DNA of 64,000 bases from Vicinamibacterales bacterium (lineage in GTDB: Bacteria; Acidobacteriota; Vicinamibacteria; Vicinamibacterales; UBA8438). Numbering within the stretch: position 1 is the stretch's first letter; each line of letters starts with the position of its first letter. The position numbers were made by a program, and so were the translations under genes. Below are positions 17,521 through 60,670 of the stretch, in pieces. The stretch is from assembly GCA_029940535.1 (NCBI GenBank), contig JAPYUM010000009.1, positions 13,607-77,606 of the forward strand. The letters run 5' to 3'. Under the pieces are notes generated by a model. The model ran no database searches. It was not told the DNA's origin and was given only the letters and a program-made list of their open reading frames with translations.

Positions 17521-17574
17521 AACAGATTCCGTGGGGAGCAGCGGACCAGACCAGATAGCTTGATGGAGAAAGTC

Positions 17575-20257: not shown

Positions 20258-20360
20258 GGCCAGACCCCCGAGGCATCCAGCCCCGCACACGCCGGCGTAC
20301 GTAGGCGCTGGTCTTCTGATCGGCCAGCCTTGGCACCACACGAAACGTCCGAACGCGGCT

Positions 20361-29208: not shown

Positions 29209-29255
29209 GATGTCTCGTTCTGCCTCTTGCGCCCACTGCTGGCAGTGGCGCGTGG

Positions 29256-34129: not shown

Positions 34130-34227
34130 GGCAGCCTCCTCGGGACAGTACCTAGAGATACAAAACGGGCCGACGCTGGAGGTCTTGCCAGCATCGGCCC
34201 GTGCCAACGACGGAATTCGGTCTAAGG

Positions 34228-35229: not shown

Positions 35230-35392
35230 CTGTGTTCCTCTCAAGGGGCGTCGATGCCAAGCGCACCGAACCCGATCGCACCGCGACGTGAGCGACCGGC
35301 CCGCCATCCTGTCAGATAAATCTACACAAAATATTAAACGGTGGGCGTCTTGTATGCAAGCTGCGGGTCAGAGGTGAAACCTGATCGGGTCC

Positions 35393-44981: not shown

Positions 44982-44983
44982 CG

Positions 44984-46441
44984 ATGGAATCGCGCCTCGA
45001 CCAGTTGCTCGCCCGTCGACGCTTCCTCGAGTTGGCCGGTACCGGCATCGGCTCAGCCGCGCTGGCCTCGCTGTTCGGCCAGGACCTGCTGGCGCAGACG
45101 TCAGGCGCGACATCGGCCGCCGTTGGTGCGTTGCCCGGGTTGCCGCACCATGCCCCGAAGGCGAAGCGGATCATCTATCTGTTTCAGTCGGGGGCGCCGT
45201 CACAGCACGAGCTCTGGGACTACAAGCCGACGCTGCGGGAGCGGATGGGCGAAGATCTGCCGCCATCGGTACGTGGCGATCAGCGTGTGACCACCATGAC
45301 GGCGGGCCAAGAGCGCTTTCCGCTGGTGCCGTCAAAGTTCAGGTTCGCGCAGCACGGTCAGTCGCGGGCCTGGGTCAGCGACCTGATGCCGCACACCGCC
45401 AAGATCGTCGATGAACTGTGCTTCATCAAGTCGATGCACACCGAGGCGATCAACCACGACCCCGGTATTACCTTCTTTCAGACCGGAGCGCAGTTGGCCG
45501 GCCGCCCCAGCATGGGCGCCTGGCTGTCCTACGGCCTCGGGAGTCTGAACTCCGACCTGCCGACCTTCGTGGCGCTGGTCTCGAAGGGGTCGGCGCAAAC
45601 CGGTCAGCCGCTCTACGACCGACTCTGGGGCAGCGGGTTTCTCCCCTCGCGGTATCAGGGCGTGAAGTTTCTTTCGACCGGCGACCCGGTCCTCTATCTG
45701 TCGAATCCGCCAGGGGTCGATCAGGACACGCGCCGCCGTTTTCTCGACGACCTGGGCGCCCTCAACGGTCTGAAAGAGGAGGAGTTCGGCGACCCCGAGA
45801 CGAGCACGCGTATCTCCCAGTACGAGATGGCGTATCGCATGCAGACCTCCGTGCCTGAACTGGCCGACCTGTCGGATGAACCGGAGAGCACCTTCGAGCT
45901 CTACGGACCCGATGCGCGTGAGCCCGGCACCTTCGCTCGCAATTGTCTCCTGGCCCGACGACTGGCCGAGCGCGACGTGCGTTTTGTGCAGTGCTTTCAC
46001 CGTGGGTGGGATCAGCACACCCGGCTGCCTCAGGGCATCGAGCGGCAGGCGCAGGACGTTGATCAGGCCCAGGCGGCGCTCGTGCAGGACCTGAAGAATC
46101 GCGGGATGCTGGATGACACCCTTGTCGTCTGGGGTGGCGAGTTCGGTCGCAGCGCCTACAGCCAGGGGGTCCTGACCGAGGAGACCTACGGGCGCGACCA
46201 TCACCCCCGCGCGTTCACCATCTGGATGGCGGGTGGGGGGGTCAAGCCGGGCATCACTTACGGCGAGACCGATGAGTTCTCCTACAACATCACCAGCAAT
46301 CCGGTGCATATCCATGACCTGCACGCCACCATGCTGCACCTGCTCGGTATCGACCACACCAAGCTGACCTATCCGTTCCAGGGACGTAACTTCCGACTGA
46401 CCGATGTGTCCGGACGTGTCGTGCAGGACGTCCTAGCCTAG
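44984..46441 (+). CDS. DUF1501 (sulfatase/phosphatase-fold) protein with TAT leader
   Basis: LLARRRFLELAGTGIGSAALASL twin-arginine leader. GGEFGR, GRDHHP and HIHDLHATMLHLLGIDH motifs. Starts 2 nt after the upstream gene. Confidence 0.9.
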   Translation: MESRLDQLLARRRFLELAGTGIGSAALASLFGQDLLAQTSGATSAAVGALPGLPHHAPKAKRIIYLFQSGAPSQHELWDYKPTLRERMGEDLPPSVRGDQRVTTMTAGQERFPLVPSKFRFAQHGQSRAWVSDLMPHTAKIVDELCFIKSMHTEAINHDPGITFFQTGAQLAGRPSMGAWLSYGLGSLNSDLPTFVALVSKGSAQTGQPLYDRLWGSGFLPSRYQGVKFLSTGDPVLYLSNPPGVDQDTRRRFLDDLGALNGLKEEEFGDPETSTRISQYEMAYRMQTSVPELADLSDEPESTFELYGPDAREPGTFARNCLLARRLAERDVRFVQCFHRGWDQHTRLPQGIERQAQDVDQAQAALVQDLKNRGMLDDTLVVWGGEFGRSAYSQGVLTEETYGRDHHPRAFTIWMAGGGVKPGITYGETDEFSYNITSNPVHIHDLHATMLHLLGIDHTKLTYPFQGRNFRLTDVSGRVVQDVLA

Positions 46442-46535: not shown

Positions 46536-47345
46536 CTACAGATAGCGCCAGGCGAGCAGTCGTCGCTCGAGTCGCTCGGCCACGGCGAAGAGCACCAGTA
46601 CGAAGGTCATGATGATGAGGATCAGCGCGATCGTCAGGGCGGCGTTGTAGGTGCTCTGGGCAAATTGCAGCAGATAGCCGAGGCCTCGGCTCGACGCCAC
46701 GAACTCGCCCACGACGGCGCCGGTGAAGGCGAAGCCCACGGCGACCTTGAAGTTGCCCATGACCCAGGCGGTGACCGAGGGCACGTAGACCTCACGCACC
46801 AGGACGCTCCGCCCGCCGCCCAGGGTCTGGATCCGTTCCACCAAGCGTCGGTCTACTTCTTTGATGCCGTTGTAAACGGCAAAGAAGATGAGCACCGTGA
46901 CGAGGATCGTAGCGAGTGCAAGCTTCGACGCCAATCCGATACCGAGCCAGATGACAAACAGTGGAGCCAGGATGACGCGCGGAATGGCGTTGAGCAGGAT
47001 CATGACCGGCTCGAGCAGATCGGCCACCAGGGGGGACAGCGCCGCTGCGAAGCCAAGGCCGATCCCCAGAACCACTCCGAGGAGAAGACCGGCAAATGCC
47101 GCCGTGGCGGTGGCGCCGAGATGGGGCCAGAGCTGGCCGGTGGTCACGAGGTCCACGATCACCCGACCGACACTCGACGGCGGAGGCACGTAGAACGGGT
47201 CCAGCCAGCCGATACGTGACAGCGTCTCCCAGACGGCGAGCAATACCAGCAGGGCCAACGCCCGGCGGATTGCACGTGTCCGACCGGGTCTCGGACTGGC
47301 CGCCGTCGACACCCGAGAGCCACTCCTCTGTGTCTCGGCGGTCAC
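46536..47345 (-). CDS. ABC transporter permease (nitrate/sulfonate/taurine NitT/TauT family)
   Basis: Six TM segments and a binding-protein-dependent signature region (LATILVTVLIFFAVYNG...). 4-nt overlap with the ATPase gene. Confidence 0.9.
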   Translation of the reverse strand: MTAETQRSGSRVSTAASPRPGRTRAIRRALALLVLLAVWETLSRIGWLDPFYVPPPSSVGRVIVDLVTTGQLWPHLGATATAAFAGLLLGVVLGIGLGFAAALSPLVADLLEPVMILLNAIPRVILAPLFVIWLGIGLASKLALATILVTVLIFFAVYNGIKEVDRRLVERIQTLGGGRSVLVREVYVPSVTAWVMGNFKVAVGFAFTGAVVGEFVASSRGLGYLLQFAQSTYNAALTIALILIIMTFVLVLFAVAERLERRLLAWRYL

Positions 47346-48094
47346 GTTGCAATGCCCTCCTCCGCTACCTCGCCGGCCAGCTCGTCCCAGAGAGTCTGCA
47401 GCAGCGGTCCGAAGTCGGGATGCCGCCGCACTTTCAGCACGTTGCGCGGGCGGGGAATGTCGATGGTATGACGGGCGCGGATCGTGGCGCGTGGGCCCTG
47501 ACTCAGCACATGGACTTCGTCAGAGACGCTGATGGCTTCCTCGAGGTCGTGCGTGACCAGCAGCACGGTGAGCTGTTCGCGCTCAACCCAGTCGAGCAGG
47601 TCCTGGGTAATTCTGGTCCGGACGATCGCGTCCAACGCCGCGAACGGCTCGTCCATCAGCAGCAGCTTGGGGCTCAAGGCCAGCACCTGGGCAATCGCCA
47701 CCCGTTTCCGCTGGCCGCCCGAGAGTTGCCCCGGATAGCGGTCGCCAAAGCCCTCGAGCCCGAGTCGTGTCAACCAGTCGTCGGCCTGCGTGTCAGCGTC
47801 GCCGAACGCGACGTCTCGGATTTTGAGACCCAGGGTCACGTTCTGGCGGACCGTCCGCCAGGGCAGGAGTGCGTCGTCCTGGAAGAGGAATCCGATGTCG
47901 CGCGCGTCCAGGTCGAGCTCGACGGAGCCGTGTAGGGGCTGCATCAAACTGGTCACCACGCGGAGAATGCTGGTCTTCCCGGAGCCGGAGGGGCCAATCA
48001 GGCTGGCAAAGCGGCCAGCCTCGAGGTCGAGGTCGACCCCGTCGATGACTGGCTCGCCACCGTAACCGACCGTCAGCCCGCGAACCCGAAGCAT
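47342..48094 (-). CDS. ABC transporter ATP-binding protein
   Basis: Walker A GPSGSGKTS, signature LSGGQRKRV and Walker B LLLMDEPF. Start taken at MLRVRGL, so the ORF-track N-terminal extension is rejected. Confidence 0.9.
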   Translation of the reverse strand: MLRVRGLTVGYGGEPVIDGVDLDLEAGRFASLIGPSGSGKTSILRVVTSLMQPLHGSVELDLDARDIGFLFQDDALLPWRTVRQNVTLGLKIRDVAFGDADTQADDWLTRLGLEGFGDRYPGQLSGGQRKRVAIAQVLALSPKLLLMDEPFAALDAIVRTRITQDLLDWVEREQLTVLLVTHDLEEAISVSDEVHVLSQGPRATIRARHTIDIPRPRNVLKVRRHPDFGPLLQTLWDELAGEVAEEGIAT

Positions 48095-48131
48095 CGTGTC
48101 TGTCAGTGGGTCGTTGCCGTTGTGCCGCGGG

Positions 48132-49238
48132 CTATCCCTGGAGTGCGGCGGTGTCCAGGAGCGTGCCGAGATCGACCTGGCCCGGCTCGAGCAGGCCGGC
48201 GACTTCCTGGGCTCGTACGACCCGCGCCGCGGCGGCGACATCGATGGTGACCGTTTCCGGGTAGAGCGAGAGCCGATATCGGTCGATGATCTGCTCGAGT
48301 TGGGCCACGTCACCGCCGGCGACCAGCTCGCTCGGCAGCGAGGCCACGATCTCGGCTGGCGGCAGGGTCCTGGTCTCGGCCAGCCCGGCTGCGAGTGCCG
48401 CGCCGAGACGCTGGATCTCTTCGTGCCGCTGGTCGCGCTCCGCCGTCCGGACCGACACACCCATGAACTCGTAGGCCCCGCCGAGGTGGGTGCGCGCCTC
48501 ATCGAGCTCCATGAAGTTCACGAGCTCACGGCCGCCATCGGCCGTGATGAGCGACAGTGCGGGTTCCTGCAGCATGGCCGCGTCGACTTGCCCGATGCGC
48601 AGGGCGTCGAAGAGGTTGGTGCCGATGGTAGCGAACTGGATGCCGCTGGTGTCGGCGCCGGCCTGGTCGAGCAGGAAGAGCAGCAGCGCATGGTCCGCGT
48701 TGCCGAGCCCGGAAATACCGACCGTCCGGCCCTCGAGGTCCTTGACCGAGCTGATGGCACCGGCCTGCGCGGGCGCGACCGCGAGGGCGAAGAGCGGCAG
48801 TCGGCCGGTCGACGCGACCCGCCGGATCGGCGCCCCGTGGGCGACGGCCTGCAGGGCGACGTCGAACGACGTGCCGGCGTAATCGACCGCGCCCCCGACG
48901 AGGGCCTGCATCGCGGCGCTGCCGCCGCGGGTATAGACGAGCTCCGCGTCCAGGCCCTGGTCGGCGAAGTGTCCCCGCACCCGGGCCACCTCGTAGGGCA
49001 CGACGCAGAGCAACTGACCGCAGAAGGCCAGACTGACCGGCGTCGCACCAGTGTCCGGGGTCGAGCGACAGCCGCTGACGGCGATGACCCCGGCCGCACC
49101 CAGCAGGCTCTTGAGCGCCGTGCGCCGGTCCCATGTCGCGCCCGGCTCGGGTCGGGGCGGATGTCGGCCTGAACTCGCGTCGGCCGTGTCCGACACGACG
49201 CCAAGCAGCTCCGGATTCGTCGCCTCGCAGCAGCCCAT
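48132..49238 (-). CDS. ABC substrate-binding protein (NMT1/SsuA/TauA-like), TAT/lipoprotein leader
   Basis: WDRRTALKSLLGAAGVIAVSGC leader and a periplasmic binding fold. The exact start is uncertain. Confidence 0.85.
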   Translation of the reverse strand: MGCCEATNPELLGVVSDTADASSGRHPPRPEPGATWDRRTALKSLLGAAGVIAVSGCRSTPDTGATPVSLAFCGQLLCVVPYEVARVRGHFADQGLDAELVYTRGGSAAMQALVGGAVDYAGTSFDVALQAVAHGAPIRRVASTGRLPLFALAVAPAQAGAISSVKDLEGRTVGISGLGNADHALLLFLLDQAGADTSGIQFATIGTNLFDALRIGQVDAAMLQEPALSLITADGGRELVNFMELDEARTHLGGAYEFMGVSVRTAERDQRHEEIQRLGAALAAGLAETRTLPPAEIVASLPSELVAGGDVAQLEQIIDRYRLSLYPETVTIDVAAAARVVRAQEVAGLLEPGQVDLGTLLDTAALQG

Positions 49239-49263
49239 GGCCCGTCTCGTGCGTAGCGTCGTT

Positions 49264-49806
49264 TTAGGGGGTGACGTAGCCGACGGCGAATTCCTTCAGC
49301 CGTTCGCTCCGGAGACCGATGCCTTCGGCCTCCGCCATGGCGCGGTCCTGGGCCCAGCCGTCTTGCTTGACCCGCTTGATGAACCACATGGCGCCCACGC
49401 GGTTCGCCGAGGCGCAGTGAATGTAGGCCGGCTGGTTCGCGCTGTCGGCGATGGCGGACAGGAACTCTTCGGTCGTCTCGTCGGTCGGCGCCCGAAACGG
49501 GATGTGGATGTAGTTCAGTCCCGCCGCGGTCGCCGCGCTCTGACTGGCCCCGATATTGGCGCCTTCCTCCTCGGCGGTGCGGAAGTTGATGACCGACGCG
49601 AAGCCGAGCGCCTTGATGGCCGGCATCGCCTCGGCCGGGGTCGCCCCGGCGCACGCCACGGTGGCGTCGACCCGCGTGTAGTTCACAACGCCTTCGGGGG
49701 CCTCGTCCTGGGCGCCAACGACGATGGGACCGACGGTGAATGCCAGCAGGGCCGCGAAGAGACAGCCACTCAGGGCCGGTCGCGAGTTCTGGGGAAGGCG
49801 TGACAT
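49264..49806 (-). CDS. DUF442 / PTP-like (beta-lactamase hydrolase-like) protein, exported
   Basis: Signal peptide. GFASVINFR, and IHCASANRVG fits the CX5R phosphatase/sulfur-transferase-like loop. Confidence 0.75.
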   Translation of the reverse strand: MSRLPQNSRPALSGCLFAALLAFTVGPIVVGAQDEAPEGVVNYTRVDATVACAGATPAEAMPAIKALGFASVINFRTAEEEGANIGASQSAATAAGLNYIHIPFRAPTDETTEEFLSAIADSANQPAYIHCASANRVGAMWFIKRVKQDGWAQDRAMAEAEGIGLRSERLKEFAVGYVTP

Positions 49807-49992: not shown

Positions 49993-50964
49993 ATGAGGAC
50001 GCGGACTGACGGCGCGCGATCGGTGGTGCGGATGGTGTCCGGTTTGATTGCGGGACCGGTGCTAGCCGCGGTGGCGGCGGTATTGATTGCGCCGGACGTG
50101 GCGGTCGGTCAAACTGGCCCCCGAGACCTGCAGGGCGTCTGGGATTTTCGAAGCGTGGTGCCATTCGAACGACCTGACGAGCTGGTCGGGAAAGACACCT
50201 TGACCCCGGAAGAGGCGGCCGCGTTCGCCCAGGAGCGTGTGGACGCGCTGAACGTCGATTTGCGGCGTGACGAGAATGGCCGGGTGCCACTGTCGGGGGG
50301 CTACAACAATTTCTGGTACGACCGCGGGAACTCGCTCGGTGATGAGCGTCGCACCTCATTGGTGGTGGATCCGCCCGATGGGAAGCTGCCAGCCCGGACC
50401 GAGGCGGCGCGGGCCAGAGGCGCCGCGCGAGGCGCGCTCCTGGGTCGTGACGCGTTTGGTCCGGAAGACCGAGGCGCGTTCGAGCGCTGTATTCTCGGGT
50501 TCAACTCCGGTCCGCCCATGAATCCCAGCGCCTACAACAACAACATGCAGCTGTTTCAGACCGACAATCACATCGTCATCCTGAACGAGATGGTCCACGA
50601 CTCGCGCATCATCCCGCTCGATGGGTCAGCGCATCTCCCAGGCGATGTCCGTCAATGGATGGGCGACTCTCGCGGCCGCTGGGACGGCGACACGCTGGTG
50701 GTGGAGACTCGTAACTTCACCGGGAAGACCAGTGTCCGTGGGTCGGGCCCGGAGATGCGGCTGGTCGAGCGATTCACCCGGGCCGACGCCGACACGCTCG
50801 TCTACGAATACACCGTCAGCGACCCCGCGTCATTCGCGCAACCGTGGTCGGTCAGGACCGCCATGCGCAAGTCGGACGCGCAGGTCTACGAGTACGCATG
50901 CCACGAAGGCAACTACGGCATGCAGAACCTGCTGGTTGCCGCCCGCGGCGCCGAGCAGCCGTAG
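49993..50964 (+). CDS. Secreted protein of the uncharacterised family (paralog 4 of 4)
   Basis: AGGGAGAG RBS and a signal/anchor segment. PRDLQGVW, RTSLVVDPPDGKLPAR, ERC, GPPM, RWDGDTLVVETRNF, LVERF and YEYACHEGNYGM motifs. Confidence 0.9.
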   Translation: MRTRTDGARSVVRMVSGLIAGPVLAAVAAVLIAPDVAVGQTGPRDLQGVWDFRSVVPFERPDELVGKDTLTPEEAAAFAQERVDALNVDLRRDENGRVPLSGGYNNFWYDRGNSLGDERRTSLVVDPPDGKLPARTEAARARGAARGALLGRDAFGPEDRGAFERCILGFNSGPPMNPSAYNNNMQLFQTDNHIVILNEMVHDSRIIPLDGSAHLPGDVRQWMGDSRGRWDGDTLVVETRNFTGKTSVRGSGPEMRLVERFTRADADTLVYEYTVSDPASFAQPWSVRTAMRKSDAQVYEYACHEGNYGMQNLLVAARGAEQP

Positions 50965-50979
50965 AAGCTGGAGCGCCTG

Positions 50980-53001
50980 ATGCAGCGACCACCCACCTCC
51001 GTGCCTCGGTTCGCCGGCCTGATCGGGATGCTGGCGATGGCGGTCGTCGGCGCGTCCGCCTCGGCTCAGACGCCCGCCGACCCGCACGAGATCGCCCCAC
51101 TCGTCGAGGAATATTGTTACCGGTGCCATGGGCCGCAAACGCAGACGGCCGGTATCGATCTCTCGACGTTGGTCGAGCAACGTCCGCTGGTGAAGAACCG
51201 CGAGACCTGGACCCGGGTGACCGATGTGCTGGAAGAGGGGAAGATGCCTCCCGCCAGTGCCCCGCAGCCGGCCGACGATGTGCGGCAGCAGATGGTGGGA
51301 CTGCTGAACCGGGACATCGAGCAGTTCGACTACTCGACCATCGATGACCCTGGCTTCGAGTTGATGCGGCGGCTCACCCACGCCGAGTACGACAACACCG
51401 TGCGTGACCTGTTCGGAGTCGAGTTGAACGTCACCGACCGGTTTCCGAGCGAGTTGACGGGGTCGAGTGGGTTCGAGAACTCCGCGAACACGCTCTTCCT
51501 GCAGCCGTCCCTGATGGAACGGTATATCGCGGTGGCCGAGCGGGTGGTGGATGTGGCGCTTCCCACCGCCCCGACGAGCGCCGTCCATCGTGCTTCTCGT
51601 GATTTGATTTTCGTGGCCACGCCCGACGCCCAGACCAGCGACACCGACGCGGCCGACACCGTGTTGCGCCGGTTCCTGACCCGCGCCTATCGCCGTCCGC
51701 CAAGCGAGGAAGAAGTCGTCAAGGCCGCCACCCACTACGCCACGGGGCGCGCGGCAGGCATTGGCTATGAAGACGCCGTCAAGCAGGCGCTCCAGGCGAT
51801 CCTGATTTCGCCGAAGTTCCTGCTGCGAGTGGAGGCGGGCACCGAGACCGACGTCCCGTTTGCGGTCAGCGACTGGGAGCTCGCGTCCAGGCTGTCCTAT
51901 TTCCTCTGGGCGTCGATGCCCGACCAGGAACTGTTCGATCTCGCCGGTCGCGGAGCGTTGAGCGATCCGGACACCCTGGCTGCCCAGGTGTCACGGATGC
52001 TGGCCGACGAGAAAGCGGACACGCTGGGCGACATCTTTGCCGCACAGTGGCTGGGGTTCCAGCACGTCGGCACCCGGATCTGGCTCGACCCGATCGACAA
52101 CCCGTGGTGCACCGACTCGCTGATGACCGCTATGCGCGACGAGTCATCGCTCTTCTTCTTGTCGCTGCTTCGTGAGAATCGACCGATCCGGACGCTCATC
52201 GACGCCGACTACACCTACGTCAACGAAGAACTGGCGACGACGCTCTACGAGATGGAGGGGATCACCGGCGACCACATGCGTCGCGTCAGTCTGACCGATC
52301 CCAATCGTGGCGGGGTCATCGGCCAAGCCAGCATTCTCGCGCTGACGTCGAACTACAAGGATACGAGTCCGGTGAAGCGAGGCTACTACGTGCTCGACAC
52401 GCTGCTGGGCACGCCCCCGCCCCCTCCGCCCCCGAACGCCGGCGTGCTGAGCGAAGAGGTGGCTGACATGCGCGGACTCAGCTTCCGCGAGAAGCTGGAG
52501 ATGCACTCGCAGAACGAGGTCTGCCGGGTGTGTCACAGCAAGATCGACCCCATCGGCTTCAGTCTCGAGAACTTCGATTACTTCGGGAAATGGCGCGCAA
52601 CCTACGATTTCCGCCAGCGGGTCGAAGACCCCGCCGACGCCGACGAGACCATCGAGTTCCAGACCGAGACCAGCCCAGACCCGGTGGTCCGGCACTTCAA
52701 GACCACCCGACGCGCGATCCCGGCCGACGGGGGACTGCCGGACGGCACCACGTTCAGCGGCCCGGCCGGGCTCAAACGGGCGCTGCTCGAGACACGACAT
52801 GACGACCTGGTCCGTCAGGTGGTCTCGAAGATGCTCGCCTACGCGCTGGGTCGGCAGCTCGAGTACTACGACGAGCCGGCGGTTCGCACGGTAATCGCCA
52901 CGCTCGAGACGGACGGCTATCGTTTCCAGACGCTGTTACGGGAGATCGTGACCAGCTATCCGTTCCGATACAAGAAGAACCCCACACGGGAGACCAACTG
53001 A
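50980..53001 (+). CDS. Haem-c protein of the DUF1587/DUF1592/DUF1595/DUF1588/DUF1585 family
   Basis: Signal peptide. VEEYCYRCHGPQ CxxCH haem site. LASRLSYFLWASMPD and C..CH..IDP.GF motifs. Confidence 0.9.
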   Translation: MQRPPTSVPRFAGLIGMLAMAVVGASASAQTPADPHEIAPLVEEYCYRCHGPQTQTAGIDLSTLVEQRPLVKNRETWTRVTDVLEEGKMPPASAPQPADDVRQQMVGLLNRDIEQFDYSTIDDPGFELMRRLTHAEYDNTVRDLFGVELNVTDRFPSELTGSSGFENSANTLFLQPSLMERYIAVAERVVDVALPTAPTSAVHRASRDLIFVATPDAQTSDTDAADTVLRRFLTRAYRRPPSEEEVVKAATHYATGRAAGIGYEDAVKQALQAILISPKFLLRVEAGTETDVPFAVSDWELASRLSYFLWASMPDQELFDLAGRGALSDPDTLAAQVSRMLADEKADTLGDIFAAQWLGFQHVGTRIWLDPIDNPWCTDSLMTAMRDESSLFFLSLLRENRPIRTLIDADYTYVNEELATTLYEMEGITGDHMRRVSLTDPNRGGVIGQASILALTSNYKDTSPVKRGYYVLDTLLGTPPPPPPPNAGVLSEEVADMRGLSFREKLEMHSQNEVCRVCHSKIDPIGFSLENFDYFGKWRATYDFRQRVEDPADADETIEFQTETSPDPVVRHFKTTRRAIPADGGLPDGTTFSGPAGLKRALLETRHDDLVRQVVSKMLAYALGRQLEYYDEPAVRTVIATLETDGYRFQTLLREIVTSYPFRYKKNPTRETN

Positions 53002-54359
53002 TGCGTGCACGCGGTCTGTCACGACGCACGGTGCTTCAGGGGCTTGGCGCCACGGTGGCCTTGCCGCTGCTCGACGTGATGCCGGCGTTCGCCACCGGGC
53101 GGGCCGGCGCGCCGGCCGCGACCGGGGTGAATCGGTTGGCGTATCTGTACTTCCCGAACGGCATCCCACGCGGCATCTGGTATCCGGAAGAGACGGGGCC
53201 GGCCGGTCAGCTGCTGAGACTCAACGAGTGGATGAGCCCGCTGGAGCCCTACAAGGACAACCTCCTCATCCCGAGCAACATCTGGACCCCGGAGGGTAAC
53301 GGCCACGTCAATGGGCCGCCCACATGGCTGACCGGACACAGCTACAACTCGCGCGGCGTCAACGCCGGCGGCGTGTCGGCCGACCAGTTGGCCGCGGCGC
53401 ATGTGCGCGAAGACACCCTGCTGCCGTCGCTGGAGTTGTCGGTGCAGGGCGAGGGGTATTTTTCGAACTCGTTGCCCCGAAACGCGATCTCCTGGTCCGC
53501 TCCCGATCGGCCGATGACGCGTGAGATCGAGCCACGCGCCATCTTCGATCGCATGTTCCGCCCACCCTCGGGCGGCGCGACCAATCGTTCGGTCATGGAT
53601 GCGGTGCTGGCCGACGCCACGGCCCTGGCCGGGTATGTGAGCGCGGCCGACCGCAGCCGGTTGGACGAATACTTCGAATCGATTCGAGCCCTAGAGCGGC
53701 GCATCGAGTTCGCCGAGAGCCGGTCGACCGAGATGCGTGACGATGGCGCGTTGACCGACACCCTGACCACGCCGACCCCTGGTATTCCGGCTGACCACGA
53801 CTCGTACATGCGACTCATGATGGATCTGATGGTCGCCGCGTTTCAGTCGGATGCCACTCGAGTCTGCACGTTCATGCTCGACCATGGGCAGTCGAACCGG
53901 TATTTCAATTTCATCCCGGACGTCACCGGCACCTGGCACGCGTTGTCGCACTACAAGAACGCCTCGGGCAAGACGGAGGATGACGACGGCGTCACGTCAT
54001 GGGAGTCGGTGGAGCAGAAGCGAGCGATGTATGCCGAGGTCATCCGCTGGCACCACGGCCAGGTCGCCTACCTGCTCGACCGGATGCGCTCGGTGGTGGA
54101 GCCCAACGGCGGGACGCTGCTGGACAACAGCATGATCGTCTACGGGGCCAGCCTTGGCGATGGGAACGAGCACGACGCGCAGCACCTGCCGACTCTGATC
54201 GCCGGCGGCGGGGCTGGCACCATCAAGACCGGACGCTTCCTCGAACACGCGGAACCCACGGACCTGTCCGCCGTGCATCTTGGACTGTTGCAGCGCATGG
54301 GACTGCCGATCGATGCGTTCGGCACCGCCGACGGGCCGCTCCCGGGCTTGGCCGGCTAG
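53001..54359 (+). CDS. DUF1552 protein with TAT leader
   Basis: TGATG overlap with the upstream gene. MRARGLSRRTVLQGLGATVALPLL leader and LIAGGGAG near the C-terminus. Confidence 0.9.
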   Translation: MRARGLSRRTVLQGLGATVALPLLDVMPAFATGRAGAPAATGVNRLAYLYFPNGIPRGIWYPEETGPAGQLLRLNEWMSPLEPYKDNLLIPSNIWTPEGNGHVNGPPTWLTGHSYNSRGVNAGGVSADQLAAAHVREDTLLPSLELSVQGEGYFSNSLPRNAISWSAPDRPMTREIEPRAIFDRMFRPPSGGATNRSVMDAVLADATALAGYVSAADRSRLDEYFESIRALERRIEFAESRSTEMRDDGALTDTLTTPTPGIPADHDSYMRLMMDLMVAAFQSDATRVCTFMLDHGQSNRYFNFIPDVTGTWHALSHYKNASGKTEDDDGVTSWESVEQKRAMYAEVIRWHHGQVAYLLDRMRSVVEPNGGTLLDNSMIVYGASLGDGNEHDAQHLPTLIAGGGAGTIKTGRFLEHAEPTDLSAVHLGLLQRMGLPIDAFGTADGPLPGLAG

Positions 54360-54526
54360 CCGGCCTCCGTTGGGCCCGGAAGGATGGAGATGGCAACGTG
54401 GCACCTCCGACACTCCGGCCGATGGGCAGGCCCGGCTGATCGAGGTGCCTTCAGTCCGCAACTGCTACAATCGTCCATCCAGCGACCGCGTCACGAAGGT
54501 GCCGCTTGCTACCAGGGAGACTCGCC

Positions 54527-55309
54527 ATGCGTGTACTCAGTTGCCTTGCCGTCCTGATGCTCGGTGCCACGTCGGTGTCGGCGCAGTCGAGCCGGATCCC
54601 GGCCGAGGACGGCGATATTGTCATCACCCCGATCATTCACTCGAGCGCGCAGGTCGAGCATGCCGGCATGGTGGTCCAGGTCGATCCGTGGAGCGTTGGC
54701 GACCTGTCCTCGGCGAAGCCAGCCGACCTCATTCTGATTACCGATGATCCGGGCCATCATCTCGACCCGGAGGCCATCGCTCAATTACGCAAGCCCGGGG
54801 CGCCGGTCGTGCTGACCGCGACCGCGCACGCGCGATTTGCCGATGGCACCGTACTCTCCAACGGTGAGAGCGGACTGTTTGCGGACATTCATGTGGAAGC
54901 GGTGGGCGCTTACGACATGACACCGGGACGCCCGTTCCACCCCCGTGGGGAAGCGAACGGATATGTGGTAACGCTGGGAGGGAAACGTCTGTTTTTCTCC
55001 GGGGTGGGGCAGTGCGTGCCGGAAATTCAGGCGCTCCAAAGCATCGATGTGGCCTTCATGCCGATGAATCTCCCGGTGGATCGGATGCGGCCGATTCCTC
55101 TGGCCGAATGTGTCAAGACGTTCAAGCCGAAGGTCGTCTATCTCAACCACTACGACCAGACCTACACGCGGTGGCTCTCCAATCCCCAGGGCGCACCGCC
55201 GCCAGACGCGCAGGACACGCCGGCCACGATCCGCGCGTTCCAGGCCGCCATCGACGGCGAGGGTATCGAATTCCGAGACGCCGCGTGGTACCCGCCACGA
55301 GCGCGGTAG
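54527..55309 (+). CDS. Secreted MBL-fold hydrolase (Lactamase_B_3-like)
   Basis: AGGGAGA RBS and a signal peptide. LILITDDPGHHLD motif. Confidence 0.8.
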   Translation: MRVLSCLAVLMLGATSVSAQSSRIPAEDGDIVITPIIHSSAQVEHAGMVVQVDPWSVGDLSSAKPADLILITDDPGHHLDPEAIAQLRKPGAPVVLTATAHARFADGTVLSNGESGLFADIHVEAVGAYDMTPGRPFHPRGEANGYVVTLGGKRLFFSGVGQCVPEIQALQSIDVAFMPMNLPVDRMRPIPLAECVKTFKPKVVYLNHYDQTYTRWLSNPQGAPPPDAQDTPATIRAFQAAIDGEGIEFRDAAWYPPRAR

Positions 55310-55340: not shown

Positions 55341-58300
55341 CTATGGGGTTGCGAACTGTCGGTCCGTGGTTTGCGGCCGGCGAGTCAGCAGCCGCCGTAG
55401 GTCTTCGACGATCACGTAGCCGGCCGGTACGAGGACGAGGGTGATGACGGTGGCGAACACCACCCCGAAGGCCAGTGAGATCGCCATCGGCACCAGACTC
55501 CGCGCCTGGATGTCGTTGTCGAGAATGATCGGCAACAGACCGGCAAAGGTGGTGAGCGAGGTGAGCAGGATCGGCCGGAACCTCGCCACGCCGGCCTCCC
55601 GGGCGGCTGCCGTCACGTCGGCGTGAGCCAGTCGCTTTCGGTTGATGAAATCGATCATCAGGAGGCTGTCGTTGACCACCACGCCGGCCAAGGCAACCAG
55701 TCCGAACAGCGAAATAAGGGTGAGGGGCACCCCCATGATGACGTGTCCCCAGAAGGCCCCGACCAGACCGAATGGGATCGCCGCCATGATGATCAACGGC
55801 TGTATGTAGGATTTGAGCGGAATCGCCAGCAACGTGTAGATGAGGAGCAGCGCGAACAGGAAGCCCTGCGCCAGCCCTTCCATGCTATCCGCCTGCTCGG
55901 CCAGCATGCCCGCCAGGCTATAGGCAACGCCGGGATGGGTGGCCAGGATCTCCGGCAGCACGGCCGCTTCCAGGTCGCTCACTACGCTACCGGTAGACGT
56001 GTCGGCCCCGACGGCCGCGGTCACGTTGACCGCGCGTTGTCTGTCCACCCGTCGAATAATCGAGAACCCTCGCCCCGTCTCCACCTCGGCCACCGAGGTG
56101 AACGGGACGTCGGCTCCGTCGGGGGTGCGGATACGCATGCGGTCCACGTCGCCGATCGATTGCCGCCCCTCCCGTGGGTACCGCACCATGACCCGCACAT
56201 CATGCCGCCCGCGCTGAATGCGTTGAACCTCTTCGCCATAGAACGCTTGTCGCACCTGCCGGCCGAGGTCTCGCTGTGACAGGCCCAGCAGGGTGGCGGC
56301 CGGCTTGATCCGCATGCGCAGTTCCTGCTTGCCTGGTCGAGCCGAGTCGTTGACGTCATACACGCCAGGATACCGTTCGAGGTGGTTTTGCACCTCGACC
56401 GCGGCCGATTCCAAGGTGGGCAGGTCCGACCCGGTGAGCTGGATGTCGAGGTCCATCCCCGGGCTGAACGAGGAAGCGAGGAACGACAGATCCTCGACGC
56501 CTGGGAGTGGTCCAATGAGGTCGCGCCACTGCGCGGCAATCTCGTCGCCAGAGAGGGTGCGGTTCGGTCCTGACTCGATCTCGATGGTCACTTCACCGAC
56601 ATGGCTTGCTCCCACCGCGATCCCACCGGACATCATGGCTTCGGCCTGCGCGCTGCCGAACGGCTGCTCGCCGACGGCGGCGTACACATGACGCACGCGA
56701 GCCCCACTTGAGCGTTCCCGATACTGGGTGGCGAGCTGGTTGGCGCCGGCCTCGATCCGGGCGACGACGTCCTGGGTCATCTGAATCGGCGCCCCCGGAG
56801 CCAGCGCGACGTCGGCCGTCACATAGTCGCTTTCCGGTGCCGCGAAGAACTCGAATGGCACCCGCCCCGACAGCAGCGCGCCCACCGTGAGCAACAGGAT
56901 GGCGGTGCCGCCGGCCACGGTCAGATAGCGCCATCTGATGCTGGCGTCCAGGACGCGCCCGTAGACCGTATTCGTGAACCACCGCATCCGGCGTCCGGAC
57001 CCGGACTTCGCACCCGACCGGCGCGCCGCGTGTCGACGTCCAGAGTGCGCCAGGTGGGCGGGGAGGATGAGCGTTGATTCGACCAGTGAAAAGCCCAGGC
57101 AGCACATCACGACCATCGGCACCGCCGCGAAGAACTTGCCCATCATCCCCTGCACGAGCATGATCGGGAGAAAGGCGGCGACGGTGGTGAGCACCCCGAA
57201 CGTGACGGGGACGACCACCTCCTGCGCGCCTTCGATTGCCCCGCGCAGCCGATCGCCGTGGCGTTCCTGATGGGTATAGATGTTTTCGCCGACGATAATC
57301 GCGTCGTCCACCACGATGCCCAGCACAACCAGGAAGCCGAACAAGGTCATCATGTTCAGCGACAGGTCGAGGCTCGGCATGAGCATCAACGCGCCGAGGA
57401 ACGAGATCGGGATCCCGAGACCGACCCAGAAGGCGAGTCGGGGCCGGAGGAAGACCGCGAGAAAGACGAAGACCAGCGCGGAGCCAGTCAGTCCGTTACG
57501 GACCATCAGACCGAGGCGGTGTTCGAGTAGGGTCGCCTGGTCTTGCCAGACGGTGAGCGAGACGCCCGGAGGCAGGAAGGTGGGGGCCCGCTCGACATAT
57601 TCATTGACGTTGGCGGCCACCTCCGGGGCGTTCACCTGGTTTGACCGGAACACCTGCAGGACGATCGCGGGGACCCCGTTGAATCGGGCTGCCTGGTCGG
57701 TCTCGGCAAAGCCGTCGACGACCGTCGCGACGTCACCGAGTCTGACGTAGGTGCCATCGGCGCTCGTGAGCAGGGCCAGCGATTCGAATTCCGTGCCCTC
57801 ATACACCTGACCGACGGTGCGGAGCAGGATTTCCCCGGCGTCCGTTCTTACCGATCCACCTGGCAGGTCCAGCGACGCGCCGCGCACCGCGTCGGCCACG
57901 CGGTCGAAGGTCAGACCGTGGCGTCGAAGCGCCGTCTCCGACACTTCGATCGAGATCTCGTACGGCCGAGCGCCCAGCAACTCGACCTGACTCACACCCG
58001 GCAGCGACGAGAGTTCGTCCCGCACGGTGTCCGCCCAGCGGCGCAGCGACAGCTCGTCGACGTCGCCCCACACCGCTACGTGCGTCACCTGGAACTTGGT
58101 GGTGATTTCGCGAATGATGGGCCGCTCGACCTCGGCGGGGAACGTGTCGATCGCATCGACGCCGCCCTTGATGTCATCGACCGCTTTGCGGAGGTCGGCA
58201 CCCAACTCCAATTCGACGACCAGCGACGCCACCCCTTCCGACGCCGTTGACGTCACCTGTTTGATGCCGTCGAGCCCTTGAATCGCCTCCTCGAGGCGCA

Positions 58301-58496
58301 CGCTCACCGCTTCTTCCACCTCGGTCGGGCTGGCCCCGAGATAGGTCACGTTGACCGTGACCATGTCGAGCGCCATCTCCGGGAAGATCTCCTGGCCGAT
58401 CGACGCGGTGGCAAGAAAGCCACTGACGACAATCATCAGCATCGTCAAGTTGGCGGCGACCGGATTGCGGGCAAACCACGCGATGACGCCGTTCAC
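55341..58496 (-). CDS. RND efflux transporter permease (AcrB/HAE family)
   Basis: 1051 aa with 12-TM RND topology. The N-terminus MNGVIAWFARNPVAANL and the repeated halves are typical. Confidence 0.95.
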   Translation of the reverse strand: MNGVIAWFARNPVAANLTMLMIVVSGFLATASIGQEIFPEMALDMVTVNVTYLGASPTEVEEAVSVRLEEAIQGLDGIKQVTSTASEGVASLVVELELGADLRKAVDDIKGGVDAIDTFPAEVERPIIREITTKFQVTHVAVWGDVDELSLRRWADTVRDELSSLPGVSQVELLGARPYEISIEVSETALRRHGLTFDRVADAVRGASLDLPGGSVRTDAGEILLRTVGQVYEGTEFESLALLTSADGTYVRLGDVATVVDGFAETDQAARFNGVPAIVLQVFRSNQVNAPEVAANVNEYVERAPTFLPPGVSLTVWQDQATLLEHRLGLMVRNGLTGSALVFVFLAVFLRPRLAFWVGLGIPISFLGALMLMPSLDLSLNMMTLFGFLVVLGIVVDDAIIVGENIYTHQERHGDRLRGAIEGAQEVVVPVTFGVLTTVAAFLPIMLVQGMMGKFFAAVPMVVMCCLGFSLVESTLILPAHLAHSGRRHAARRSGAKSGSGRRMRWFTNTVYGRVLDASIRWRYLTVAGGTAILLLTVGALLSGRVPFEFFAAPESDYVTADVALAPGAPIQMTQDVVARIEAGANQLATQYRERSSGARVRHVYAAVGEQPFGSAQAEAMMSGGIAVGASHVGEVTIEIESGPNRTLSGDEIAAQWRDLIGPLPGVEDLSFLASSFSPGMDLDIQLTGSDLPTLESAAVEVQNHLERYPGVYDVNDSARPGKQELRMRIKPAATLLGLSQRDLGRQVRQAFYGEEVQRIQRGRHDVRVMVRYPREGRQSIGDVDRMRIRTPDGADVPFTSVAEVETGRGFSIIRRVDRQRAVNVTAAVGADTSTGSVVSDLEAAVLPEILATHPGVAYSLAGMLAEQADSMEGLAQGFLFALLLIYTLLAIPLKSYIQPLIIMAAIPFGLVGAFWGHVIMGVPLTLISLFGLVALAGVVVNDSLLMIDFINRKRLAHADVTAAAREAGVARFRPILLTSLTTFAGLLPIILDNDIQARSLVPMAISLAFGVVFATVITLVLVPAGYVIVEDLRRLLTRRPQTTDRQFATP

Positions 58497-58624: not shown

Positions 58625-59344
58625 ATGGAGACCGTCTTTCTCATCGTGGTCTCCTTTGTGGCCTCGACCCTCACCGCCACCGTCGGTCTCGGTGGCGGCA
58701 TCCTGCTGATTTCGGTGATGCCCGGCCTCATCCCGGCCGCCGCCATCGTCCCGGTGCACGGGGCCGTCCAGCTGGCATCCAATTCGAGCCGGGTCCTGCT
58801 GGGGATGCGACACATCGACTGGCGCGTAGTGTGGCCGTTCGTCGGCGGATCGATTGTGGGCGCCGCCGCCGGGGTTGGCATGGTGGCCCGTTTCAGCTTC
58901 GAACAGCTCCCGCTCTATCTAGGACTCTTCGTGCTCGTGGTGACGTGGATGCCGATCCCGTCGCGCGTGATGGCGTTCCCCGGTCAGTTCGCGGTCCTGG
59001 GCGCGATTCAGACGTATGTGTCGCTGTTCATGGGCGCCACCGGCCCGCTGGCCAGCCCGTTCCTCCTTCGCCGCGGCCTGTCCCAGGACCAACTCGTCAT
59101 CACGCTTGGCACCGTGATGATGGCCATTCACGTGCTCAAGCTTGTGGTCTTCGCGGTGGCCGGGTTCGTGTTCGCGCCCTACCTCTCTTTGGTCGCCGGC
59201 ATGGTGACAGCGGTGGTCCTCGGGTCCTGGGTCGGGACGAAGCTGCGGGGGCGACTGCCGGAACGCGCGCTTCGTCGCAGCCTGAAAGGCCTGATCACGG
59301 TCCTCGCCCTCCGAATGATCGTGGCGGCGGTGCTCGTGCGCTGA
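58625..59344 (+). CDS. TauE/SafE (DUF81) family anion exporter (second copy)
   Basis: TATVGLGGGILLISVMPGL motif and multiple TM segments. Confidence 0.85.
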   Translation: METVFLIVVSFVASTLTATVGLGGGILLISVMPGLIPAAAIVPVHGAVQLASNSSRVLLGMRHIDWRVVWPFVGGSIVGAAAGVGMVARFSFEQLPLYLGLFVLVVTWMPIPSRVMAFPGQFAVLGAIQTYVSLFMGATGPLASPFLLRRGLSQDQLVITLGTVMMAIHVLKLVVFAVAGFVFAPYLSLVAGMVTAVVLGSWVGTKLRGRLPERALRRSLKGLITVLALRMIVAAVLVR

Positions 59345-59870: not shown

Positions 59871-60524
59871 TTACATCCCGCCGGACAGAATCAGCGTGCG
59901 CCAGCGGCGGAGTTCGCCGTCGACATCGGCGGGGTCGGCGACCGTCTGGGCATCTCCCCCCAGAAAGCCCTTGAGGTGAGCGAAGAGGGTGTCGTGACCG
60001 GCCTCCCGATACTCTCGACCCAGGGTCTCGACCACCTGCACCTGCTCGAGGAGGGTGAAGGCCCAGCGTCGCTCGACAACCTCCTCCGGGGTCGCCGCGG
60101 GCGCGAGTTCCCGTGCGTAGCGGCCCTCAGCGTGCTGGATTCCAGGAAGTCCACCGACGTCGGCGTACGGCCCGCGCCGCGTTTCACCGCGCGCCTCTCG
60201 CTCGTGATTCGAGACAAAGTGTTTGAGCGCCGTCAGCAAAAACGAACGAAACTTGCCACGGCCTGGGTCGGCGACCCCGATGGTGCCTTCCTCCAGGAGC
60301 TTGACGAAGAACGCCTGGATGAGGTCGCGGGCATCTTCGCGAGCGTGTCCCTGGCGGCGCAGGTATGCATACAGGGGGTACCAGTAGGATCGGCACAGCG
60401 TCGCCAGCGCTTGTTCGGCGTCCGGTGACGCCGGGTCAGCGGCCGCGCGCACCACGTGCCATCGCGTAGCCTCGAAGCGGCGGGGGCCGCCAATTCCGGA
60501 GGAAGGGAGGTCGTGGGATGACAT
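59871..60524 (-). CDS. ECF-type sigma-70 family protein, apparently lacking region 4 (possible truncation)
   Basis: TRWHVVRAAAD...LCRSYWYPLYAYLRRQGHAREDARDLIQAFF is a region-2 pattern typical of kinase-associated ECF groups. The ORF stops about where the region 4.2 HTH should begin. Confidence 0.7.
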   Translation of the reverse strand: MSSHDLPSSGIGGPRRFEATRWHVVRAAADPASPDAEQALATLCRSYWYPLYAYLRRQGHAREDARDLIQAFFVKLLEEGTIGVADPGRGKFRSFLLTALKHFVSNHEREARGETRRGPYADVGGLPGIQHAEGRYARELAPAATPEEVVERRWAFTLLEQVQVVETLGREYREAGHDTLFAHLKGFLGGDAQTVADPADVDGELRRWRTLILSGGM

Positions 60525-60670
60525 GTGTCGACCAGACTTCCTCGAACCCATCGGAGCCGGTGCCGGTAGGGACCAATCGGCCGCGGGTGATAGTCTCCCT
60601 GTGCCGGTTGTTCCTCGATGCCTCCGCGTCGTTGAACGACGACCGTCCTGACGCGACCTGGGGGTTACAG

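Follow-up and report, generated by a model that had tools for sequence, protein, structure and literature searches.

A published di-haem cytochrome–DUF1552 gene pair and its changeable neighbours in a Vicinamibacterales genome

Introduction

In the 64,000-nucleotide stretch of Vicinamibacterales DNA analysed here (the window), four co-directional genes encode exported proteins: FAM4, a di-haem PSCyt protein, a DUF1552 protein and an MBL-fold protein. The locus raises the question of whether these four genes form one system, or whether only some of them belong together. A sequence-only reading had proposed a conserved four-gene module, parallel to a second one with DUF1553 and DUF1501 genes.

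The names of the PSCyt and PSD domains go back to work on Rhodopirellula baltica by Studholme et al. (2004), according to the citations in PMC3542564 and PMC5615132. The pairing of PSCyt3 with DUF1552 was stated by He et al. (2017) in mSphere (Text S1, PMC5615132), and a module of DUF1501 with PSCyt1/PSCyt2/PSD1 was described by Kamneva et al. (2012) in Genome Biol Evol (PMC3542564). The literature treats both pairings as conserved modules without a known function (PMC3542564; PMC5615132 Text S1), which agrees with the earlier statement that no known pathway explains them. Planctomycetota, Verrucomicrobiota and Acidobacteriota carry PSCyt/DUF1501/DUF1552 modules in abundance, and no function has been known for them since the first description (Studholme et al. 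2004, as cited in these papers).

Gene arrangement

The window genes were called with a codon log-odds caller. According to ORF and start-codon inspection, FAM4 (49993–50964, + strand) encodes a protein with a Sec signal, from a very large family that carries no annotation. GGGAGAG is located 5' of its ATG, and the longest possible ORF starts from GTG 49951. The spacer between FAM4 and the cytochrome gene is 15 nt (50965–50979), and GGAG is located within it. The cytochrome gene (50980–53001, + strand) encodes a di-haem c-type cytochrome-like protein of 673 residues with a Sec signal. The DUF1552/HXXSHH gene (PF07586; 53001–54359, + strand, 452 residues, 248 bits in Pfam) starts within the preceding stop codon with a one-base overlap, TGATG: CAACTGATGCGT. 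This stop/start overlap suggests translational coupling. The N-terminus of the DUF1552 protein, MRARGLSRRTVLQGLGATVALPLL, is a twin-arginine signal with the motif SRRTVL. The 15-nt spacing after FAM4, the CxxCH protein of the DUF1587/1592/1595/1588/1585 type and the Tat-exported DUF1552 protein with its TGATG overlap were thus found as the sequence-only reading had described them.

A second pair is located upstream in the window. It consists of a di-haem PSCyt1/DUF1549/Laminin_G_3/DUF1553 protein, identified by Pfam (41793–44981, + strand), and a DUF1501 protein (44984–46441, + strand). Between DUF1501 and FAM4, a four-gene block on the − strand (46536–49806) encodes an ABC permease, an ABC ATPase, an NMT1/SsuA-like binding protein and a BLH/DSP-phosphatase-domain protein; the part from 46536 to 49238 is taken up by the ABC genes and the binding protein of the NMT1 type. 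This block is missing at the same position in the relatives examined (the L005, L008 and L095 context). A promoter and terminator scan of 49.7–55.5 kb gave nothing above the shuffled expectation.

The cytochrome–DUF1552 pair

The 673-residue protein matches PSCyt1, DUF1587, DUF1595, DUF1592, DUF1588 and DUF1585 above the Pfam cut-offs. In the PSCyt/PSD nomenclature, these are PSCyt1, PSD3, PSD5, PSD4, PSCyt3 and PSD2. As PSCyt3 (PF07627) and PSD4 (PF07631) are matched together with PSD2, PSD3 and PSD5, the protein belongs to PSCyt group III. Its two CxxCH motifs (C46YRCH and C515RVCH) are predicted haem sites, and both are kept in all 17 homologues (17/17). PDB-chain sequence searches with the protein gave nothing useful, and NCBIfam contained no match for it or for the DUF1552 protein.

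The pair in the window is an instance of the 'Planctomycete-type' module known from the literature: it has the domain set of the PSCyt group III–DUF1552 pair, with PSCyt1 N-terminal, and DUF1552 is immediately adjacent here as well. The host, however, is an acidobacterium of the Vicinamibacterales type and not a PVC bacterium. The 673-residue subtype is shorter than the versions of roughly 800–870 residues in other acidobacterial loci, and its sequence is kept unusually well between contigs with closest named proteins from different phyla.

No significant sequence match of DUF1552 to solved structures (PDB chains) was found. In a Foldseek search with the DUF1552 model, all of the top 50 matches (50/50) were alkaline-phosphatase-superfamily structures, namely sulfatases, LtaS, YejM and phosphonate monoester hydrolase. 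The probabilities were about 1 and the E-values 2e-4 to 1e-2, whereas the TM-scores were only 0.35–0.5 and the mean pLDDT of the model was 60.8. The best matches of this low-confidence model were S1 sulfatases. Residues 149–263 are unmodelled, and the long helical insertion to which they belong (about residues 150–265) has no confident model. The predicted core fold would be like that of S1 sulfatases, LtaS, YejM and phosphonate monoester hydrolase, whereas the C/S-x-P-x-R formylglycine motif is absent from the DUF1552 sequence and from the conserved columns of a 21-protein DUF1552 alignment, and an Asp-Asp after the first strand is also lacking. According to the model, DUF1552 probably has a sulfatase-like fold of the alkaline-phosphatase superfamily without the sulfatase nucleophile motif. 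The model's matching of alkaline-phosphatase-superfamily structures alone, combined with the missing CxPxR, is new here.

The two pairs in the window are built alike: a di-haem multidomain protein comes first and a twin-arginine partner second. Both haem proteins have two conserved CxxCH motifs each, and twin-arginine signals are present in DUF1552 and, in the consensus of homologues, in DUF1501. In an hhalign comparison, DUF1552 and DUF1501 have the C-terminal motif region in common, and this match is weak (E 4e-4, probability 34%). The 'LLDNS...GDGNEHD' region of DUF1552 aligns to the part of DUF1501 with the metal ligands; the corresponding region of LtaS and sulfatases is weakly matched by the DUF1501 profile. 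The Pfam families of the two modules differ, and Laminin_G_3 is present on the DUF1553-type haem protein and not on the DUF1592-type one. The two pairs are plausibly sister systems, as had been suggested; the DUF1552 model, with its matches confined to one superfamily, points the same way as the paired CxxCH motifs, the twin-arginine signals and the weak hhalign match.

A twin-arginine signal implies export in the folded state, which is typical of proteins that gain a cofactor before export. Periplasmic enzymes are known in which the catalytic subunit is exported by Tat and a cytochrome c subunit by Sec, and the layout of the cytochrome–DUF1552 pair resembles them. We presume that DUF1552 would act as the catalytic subunit and would be a divergent alkaline-phosphatase-superfamily enzyme that depends on a metal. 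Its partner in the periplasm would be the haem protein, with putative physical contact. The haem protein may relay electrons between the DUF1552 enzyme and the respiratory chain, or it may modify or activate the enzyme.

The MBL-fold protein

The MBL-fold gene (54527–55309, + strand) probably starts at ATG 54527 (MRVLSCLAVLMLGATSVSAQ) rather than at TTG 54506, and its product carries a Sec signal. The protein matches Lactamase_B_3 (49.3 bits against a cut-off of 24) and is similar to PDB entry 3kl7 (E 3.5e-34). The canonical THxHxDH metal motif, however, is absent from it. TDDPGHH is located at that place, opposite THEHGDH of 3kl7 and THGHGDH of TM1162, and SGVG is located opposite AGDT, which contains the downstream Asp metal ligand. 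Both substitutions are kept in five MBL orthologs. This MBL clade lacks the canonical HxHxDH metal site, which is new here. The secreted MBL hydrolase of the sequence-only reading keeps its fold and its Sec signal but loses the canonical metal motif.

The same reading had placed a metallohydrolase of a different fold beside each pair, and both pairs behind the same family. Next to the DUF1553 pair, the CehA/McbA-like gene (39500–40927) is located between FAM3 and a TauE gene (40943–41689). Its CehA-like match is under the NCBIfam cut-off (65 against 80 bits), and the MBL-fold match stands with the non-canonical motif described above. FAM4 directly precedes the DUF1592-type gene, but the CehA/McbA-like and TauE genes separate FAM3 from DUF1553.

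The FAM family

By tblastn, three further FAM4 paralogs were detected, as had been expected from the sequence, and the window contains four FAM copies in all. FAM1 (17560–18726, + strand, 39% identical to FAM4) follows an SLT-domain gene, and no co-directional gene comes after it as a partner. FAM2 (34228–35307, − strand, 44%) has an amidohydrolase gene (32840–34207) directly downstream. FAM3 (38457–39470, + strand) is 42% identical. The family comprises at least 12,900 clusters at 50% identity (12,912 counted), and FAM is without a sequence match in Pfam, NCBIfam or PDB chains. C166 and C303-H304-E305-x-N307 (FAM4 numbering) are invariant.

In the FAM4 model, the N-terminal half is helical or extended, and the C-terminal half is a calycin-like, closed antiparallel β-barrel (about residues 184–294) whose strands show pLDDT of about 80–92. 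The best PDB matches by Foldseek are calycins (E 1e-3 to 1e-1, target TM-score about 0.45–0.5), and even the top match is weak (E 1.1e-3, TM-score 0.5 relative to the target). The modelled barrel resembles those of FABP, CRABP, SAHS, lipocalins and nitrophorins; the structural likeness is weak and there is no sequence similarity. FAM differs from calycins in an additional N-terminal half of about 140 residues, and its invariant C...CHExN has no counterpart in the matched calycin chains. A Lipocalin_5 domain is fused to one family member. FAM proteins may be exported calycin-like barrel proteins, probably binders of small molecules or enzymes themselves, and the family has expanded in these genomes beside many different exported enzymes.

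Genes at most 300 nt downstream of FAM genes on the same strand were counted (n = 54). DUF6152 is the commonest partner (11/54), while PQQ dehydrogenases follow in three or four cases (3–4/54) and PSCyt genes in three (3/54). The upstream neighbours are just as mixed. No DUF6152 was found in the window, and literature searches on DUF6152, HXXSHH and the Pfam accessions turned up no study of function. FAM is thus a family of generic exported proteins beside many unrelated genes.

Gene order in relatives and its explanation

FAM4 orthologs of at least 74% identity were found in seven contexts. The DUF1592–DUF1552 pair follows in three of them (the window, L005-7 and L095) and is missing in the other four (L008, the P0004 contig, L096 and L001). 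The 683-residue protein encoded after the FAM4 ortholog in L096 was checked as a possible degenerate form of the DUF1592 type; it proved unrelated, without any Pfam match. DUF1552 orthologs at 74–79% identity keep an overlapping or abutting cytochrome partner, which is 65–66% identical to the one in the window. The contigs that bear them have entirely different flanks, with closest named proteins from other phyla, and at these pairs there is no FAM upstream and no MBL gene downstream. The cytochrome–DUF1552 adjacency is also present in L005, L089–L095 and 13 other loci. The MBL gene has AcrB, and not DUF1552, as its stable neighbour in relatives, and in L095 three genes are located between DUF1552 and the MBL gene.

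These results indicate that the proposed four-gene module is not conserved, even among FAM4 orthologs of at least 74% identity. This and the generic nature of the FAM proteins are the outcomes that the sequence-only reading had named as refuting its proposal. FAM4 and the MBL-fold gene are changeable, lineage-specific neighbours and not components of the module. Elsewhere only the haem-protein and DUF1552 genes stay together, so the stretch is not a new four-gene system. The window adds no new system, and the unit to study is the two-gene pair. As the 673/452-residue subtype is strongly conserved with different flanks, it is a good candidate for biochemistry. We consider it probable that the whole is explained jointly: the pair is the only evolutionarily stable unit, FAM4 and the MBL gene are mere neighbours, the mechanism deduced for DUF1552 and its haem partner holds, and FAM proteins are calycin-like barrels.

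Four other explanations were weighed against this joint one. According to the first, FAM proteins are calycin-like partners that capture substrates or carry cofactors for both types of PSCyt/DUF15xx pair, for PQQ dehydrogenases and for hydrolases, and the adjacencies reflect a real, loose coupling. Independent cases of FAM next to a PSCyt pair were found in L029, L054, L076 and L026, and with an extra FAM in L005. In a permutation test within loci only, FAM directly heads a pair three times, against 0.9–1.05 expected (P 0.05–0.07). As this recurrence is slightly above the chance expectation, a loose functional link is possible, but we regard this explanation as unlikely. If it is true, the substrates of PSCyt/DUF1501/DUF1552 modules could be approached by experiment for the first time.

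Alternatively, FAM4 would be the trailing gene of DUF1553–DUF1501, and in some lineages the DUF1592–DUF1552 pair would have come in between FAM4 and the MBL/AcrB side, perhaps after horizontal transfer. FAM4 directly follows DUF1501 in L005, L008 and L095, whether the pair is present or not, the similarity between the window and L008 stops at the FAM4 stop codon, and the pair is 74–79% (DUF1552) and 65–66% (cytochrome) identical to pairs on the other-phyla-like contigs. However, the opposite-strand block of 3.3 kb parts DUF1501 from FAM4 in the window, five unrelated genes are located between them in L096, and FAM trails a pair only once among 70 loci (L026). We judge this insertion rather improbable.

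In the explanation closest to the original proposal, FAM is a dedicated first component of both pair types, such as a substrate-binding or specificity subunit, and FAM4–DUF1592–DUF1552–MBL is one operon parallel to FAM3...DUF1553–DUF1501. The tight co-directional spacing (the 15-nt spacer and the TGATG overlap) is consistent with this, as are the same order in L005-7, and in L095 without an adjacent MBL gene, the independent FAM genes placed immediately ahead of DUF1592 (L029) or DUF1553 (L054, L076 and L005), and the marginal enrichment of three against about one. Against it stand the absence of the pair in four of the seven FAM4 contexts, the orthologous pairs without adjacent FAM or MBL genes, the prevalence of DUF6152 over PSCyt downstream of FAM, and the unstable adjacency of MBL to DUF1552. 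Moreover, the sequence-only reading had asked whether the paralog phylogeny tracks the type of partner pair; in the neighbour-joining tree, neither the FAMs ahead of DUF1592 genes nor those ahead of DUF1553 genes form a single clade, and the tree does not follow the partner type. The operon is largely refuted already and has little chance of being correct.

Least likely of all is an organosulfur-scavenging island, in which sulfatase-like DUF1552 and DUF1501 hydrolases free sulfate or sulfite from organic esters or sulfonates: the S1 sulfatase matches of DUF1552, the weak profile matches of DUF1501 to sulfatases, LtaS and phosphonate monoester hydrolase, the two TauE exporter genes (the second at 58625–59344), the SsuA/NMT1-type ABC genes and an FGE-sulfatase-domain gene (19304–20341) speak for it, but we rate it low because CxPxR is missing in DUF1552 and the ABC block is absent in relatives, and in addition no sulfur theme is seen around orthologous pairs and the di-haem partner is left without a role.

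Apart from the pair, we flag FAM as a very large exported family without a Pfam model, together with its recurrent partner DUF6152. This part of the chromosome has a wealth of genes whose products are exported and of a catabolic type.

Gene organization

The window has a G+C content of 65%, and the gene set studied here consists of four consecutive genes on the + strand. The first gene, FAM4 (49993–50964), encodes a member of an unannotated exported protein family, denoted FAM. GGGAGAG precedes its ATG, and the longest ORF begins from GTG at 49951. After a spacer of 15 nt containing GGAG, the cytochrome-like gene (50980–53001) encodes a protein of 673 aa with two CxxCH motifs (residues 46 and 515) and a signal peptide of the Sec type. 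The domains matched by this protein are PSCyt1, DUF1587/PSD3, DUF1595/PSD5, DUF1592/PSD4, DUF1588/PSCyt3 and DUF1585/PSD2. The TGA of this gene and the ATG of the DUF1552/HXXSHH gene (53001–54359, 452 aa) have one base in common (TGATG), and the N-terminus of the DUF1552 protein, MRARGLSRRTVLQGLGATVALPLL, is a twin-arginine signal. The metallo-β-lactamase-fold (MBL) gene follows after a gap of 167 nt, most likely from ATG 54527 to 55309; its product matches Lactamase_B_3 and carries the signal peptide MRVLSCLAVLMLGATSVSAQ. The identities and arrangement of the four genes are thus as described in the sequence-only reading, with three details corrected.

Three further full-length paralogs with 39–44% identity were detected in the window by tblastn with FAM4: FAM1 (17560–18726, +), FAM2 (34228–35307, −) and FAM3 (38457–39470, +). 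The other pair, a PSCyt1/DUF1549/Laminin_G_3/DUF1553 protein followed by DUF1501, is located at 41793–46441. Both pairs had been proposed to be headed by a FAM gene. This holds for FAM4, which lies immediately before the DUF1592 gene, whereas a CehA/McbA-like gene and a TauE gene separate FAM3 from the DUF1553 gene. No FAM gene is present between TauE and the DUF1553 gene in the window, where the gap is only 104 nt. In the close relatives L005–7, an extra FAM gene (L005:4122–5135) is located at this position, and therefore both pair types are directly headed by a FAM gene there. In the window only, DUF1501 is parted from FAM4 by a 3.3 kb block on the − strand (46536–49806) of four genes, encoding an ABC permease, an ABC ATPase, an NMT1/SsuA-like binding protein and a BLH/DSP-phosphatase-domain protein; the corresponding distance is about 60–130 nt in L005, L008 and L095.

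Conservation of the four-gene arrangement

FAM4 orthologs were compared across seven independent genomic contexts, the window being one of them. The DUF1592–DUF1552 pair is located 3′ of FAM4 in three of the seven. In L005–7 (FAM4 identity 87%), the genes after FAM4 are DUF1592, DUF1552 and MBL, as in the window, and FAM4 directly follows DUF1501. In L095 (86%), DUF1592 and DUF1552 are followed by TonB_C, PadR, a radical-SAM gene and then MBL. The pair is absent from L008 (84%), where an RlmN-like radical-SAM gene, ArsC, MBL and AcrB follow FAM4, and from the P0004 contig (86%), where TonB_C, PadR, radical SAM, MBL and AcrB follow. In L096 (83%), FAM4 precedes an unrelated 683-aa protein without a Pfam match and two PQQ dehydrogenases, and the neighbours are unrelated in L001 (74%). 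Between the window and L008, the nucleotide similarity stops at the FAM4 stop codon.

DUF1552 orthologs show 74–79% identity, and the named cluster members closest to them carry the labels Gemmatimonadota and Pseudomonadota, which derive from metagenome bins. On the contigs carrying these orthologs (L089–L094; marine-metagenome and other contigs), the cytochrome gene is 65–66% identical, and the overlapping or abutting arrangement is retained. These pairs have no FAM gene upstream and no MBL gene downstream. Their flanks differ wholly from contig to contig; a short-chain dehydrogenase, PQQ dehydrogenases, tannase and a PLP decarboxylase are among the genes there. About 3.5 kb from the pair in L093 and L094, past a PQQ dehydrogenase gene and a tannase gene, there is a FAM gene. 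Since the overlap or abutment is kept amid such different flanks without an adjoining FAM or MBL gene, the DUF1592–DUF1552 pair is the conserved unit. The high conservation despite unrelated flanks, together with best-named relatives in several phyla according to the metagenome-bin labels, suggests horizontal spread of the pair, or unusually strong constraint. The loci also contain other DUF1592-type proteins of Acidobacteriota, which have lengths of about 800–870 aa and are only 35–43% identical to the 673-aa subtype.

The MBL protein clearly has the MBL fold, according to a Pfam match above the cut-off and a match to PDB 3kl7 (E 3.5e-34). Its clade carries TDDPGHH in place of the canonical THxHxDH and SGVG in place of AGDT, both kept in five orthologs, and the protein and its orthologs lack the downstream Asp ligand. 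Because of the conserved substitutions, a canonical binuclear metallohydrolase site is unlikely. The CehA-like match near the other pair scores under its NCBIfam cut-off. Of the proposed parallel between two metallohydrolases of different folds (PHP-like and MBL), the MBL fold stands, and the altered metal-site motifs make the parallel weaker than it first seemed. The stable neighbour of MBL across relatives is AcrB, not DUF1552. In the window, an AcrB-type transporter gene (55341–58496, −) adjoins MBL, and an RlmN-like radical-SAM gene often accompanies them in relatives.

Neighbours of FAM genes

We collected 80 loci from species-representative genomes, annotated with our own codon-usage gene caller and tblastn with the window proteins; 70 high-GC loci entered the census. 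Tandem arrays of FAM genes are common, and the DUF1592–DUF1552 pair is located within 10 kb in about one-sixth of the loci, seldom adjoining FAM. Among 54 downstream neighbours (same strand, gap <300 nt), DUF6152 is the commonest partner (11), and PSCyt proteins account for three (DUF1592 type in L029; DUF1553 type in L054 and L076). The others include PQQ dehydrogenases (3–4), amidohydrolases (2), ankyrin-repeat proteins (2) and one case each of tannase, β-lactamase, CoA-transferase and MBL (L015). The upstream neighbours (n = 47) include PQQ dehydrogenases, NHL and GSDH propellers, GDSL lipases, MBL, amidase, carboxylesterase and one DUF1552 (L026). These mixed neighbours speak against FAM as a pair-specific component.

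When the gene order was shuffled within the 13 loci containing both a FAM gene and a pair, FAM directly heading a pair was observed three times against 0.9–1.05 expected (P 0.05–0.07), and FAM trailing a pair once against 0.85 expected. The residual association is weak. Nor does the paralog phylogeny track the partner type as had been suggested. A neighbour-joining tree built from 145 FAM proteins puts the ones encoded directly before DUF1592 genes in distant clades (window and L005 versus L029), and likewise the ones encoded directly before DUF1553 genes (L054 and L076 versus L005). The genes downstream of close FAM4 relatives are unrelated.

Essentially, the four-gene architecture is not conserved elsewhere and FAM is a generic neighbour, and the proposal of a four-gene module headed by FAM lacks support. 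The window offers another example of a two-gene module that is already known but still unexplained, here set in an acidobacterial region with many exported enzymes and adjoined by members of the very large, unannotated FAM family. Its interest lies in what the PSCyt/DUF15xx pairs do and in how large FAM is, rather than in the architecture that had been proposed.

Possible function of the pair

The sequence-only reading was right that no known pathway explains the pairs: the PSCyt2–DUF1501 pairing (PMC3542564) and the PSCyt3–DUF1552 pairing (PMC5615132 Text S1) were both published as conserved gene organizations of unknown function. The CxxCH conservation, the C-terminal alignment of DUF1552 with DUF1501 and the predicted sulfatase-like fold of DUF1552 without the sulfatase motif are new here. 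Both CxxCH motifs are kept in 17 of 17 DUF1592-type and three of three DUF1553-type proteins examined, and thus both types are probably di-haem proteins. In the hhalign comparison of the DUF1552 and DUF1501 profiles, the C-terminal ~100 residues align weakly (E 4e-4, probability 34%), with 'LLDNS..YG...GDGNEHD' of DUF1552 placed against 'MLDDTLVVWGGEFGR...GRDHH' of DUF1501. The proposal that the two pairs are sister systems is supported by this match and by the shared CxxCH motifs. In this region, the DUF1501 profile also has hits, at non-significant E-values, to LtaS, sulfatases and phosphonate monoester hydrolase.

The AlphaFold model of DUF1552 has a mean pLDDT of 60.8, with several core blocks at 85–95 and residues 149–263 unmodelled. 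The top 50 Foldseek matches all belong to the alkaline-phosphatase superfamily (probability ~1, E 2e-4 to 1e-2), and they include S1 sulfatases, LtaS/LtaP, YejM and phosphonate monoester hydrolase. The fold is therefore probably sulfatase-like. The formylglycine motif C/S-x-P-x-R was not found in DUF1552, which rules out an S1 sulfatase. By analogy from the gene layout and the export routes, we infer that the pair may form a periplasmic two-subunit enzyme, in which DUF1552, as the Tat-exported, metal-dependent catalytic subunit, would work with a Sec-exported di-haem protein that either transfers electrons or activates the enzyme.

An FGE-sulfatase-domain gene (19304–20341, −) and two TauE/SafE-type exporter genes (40943–41689, +; 58625–59344, +) are also present in the window. 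As they share it with two partners of putative sulfatase-like fold, there could be a sulfur theme.

The FAM family

FAM has no sequence match in Pfam, NCBIfam or PDB. Two word-indexed searches gave at least 8000 candidates each, and when representatives clustered at 50% identity were searched exhaustively with HMMER, 12,912 clusters matched at E ≤ 1e-3 and 5,797 at E ≤ 1e-10. A pattern scan with one genome per species detected at least 589 relatives; among the relatives listed, most are from Vicinamibacterales and other Acidobacteriota, Bryobacterales and some Gammaproteobacteria. According to a 51-sequence alignment, the invariant residues include R165-C166, E199-M200, E259, E300-Y301, C303-H304-E305, N307 and A317-R318, and the C-terminal ones make up the signature 'YEYACHEGNYG'.

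In the AlphaFold model (mean pLDDT 72.6, pTM 0.70), the N-terminal half is helical, and after it come a conserved but poorly modelled loop (157–181), a β-barrel (~184–294) and a C-terminal helix. Foldseek against PDB gave weak matches only, and every one was a calycin-type barrel (SAHS, FABP, CRABP and nitrophorins); for the top match, E was 1.1e-3 and the target-normalized TM-score ~0.5. Stand-alone barrel-only genes of ~125 aa, corresponding to FAM residues ~185–305, are present in many loci. Rare fusions (P0243, P0292 and P0384) join FAM to a squalene-hopene-cyclase-like domain, a Lipocalin_5 domain or leucine-rich repeats.

A three-gene cassette of barrel-only half-FAM (~125 aa), full-length FAM and DUF6152 (~140–150 aa) recurs in other genomes (L009:9444–11327, L036:10004–11947, L071:10004–12165, L083:5700–7669 and others); the window has no DUF6152 gene. 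After predicted signal-peptide cleavage, the mature N-terminus of DUF6152 would be HHAF, which might be a metal-binding feature. About one-third of the loci have PQQ dehydrogenases no more than 10 kb from the FAM anchor, and the window contains two (27151–29463, −; 60518–62368, +). Hydrolases of different folds are repeatedly located 3′ of FAM paralogs: an amidohydrolase with FAM2 (32840–35307, −) and in L057 and L069, a CehA/McbA-like gene with FAM3 (38457–40927, +), and MBL in L015.
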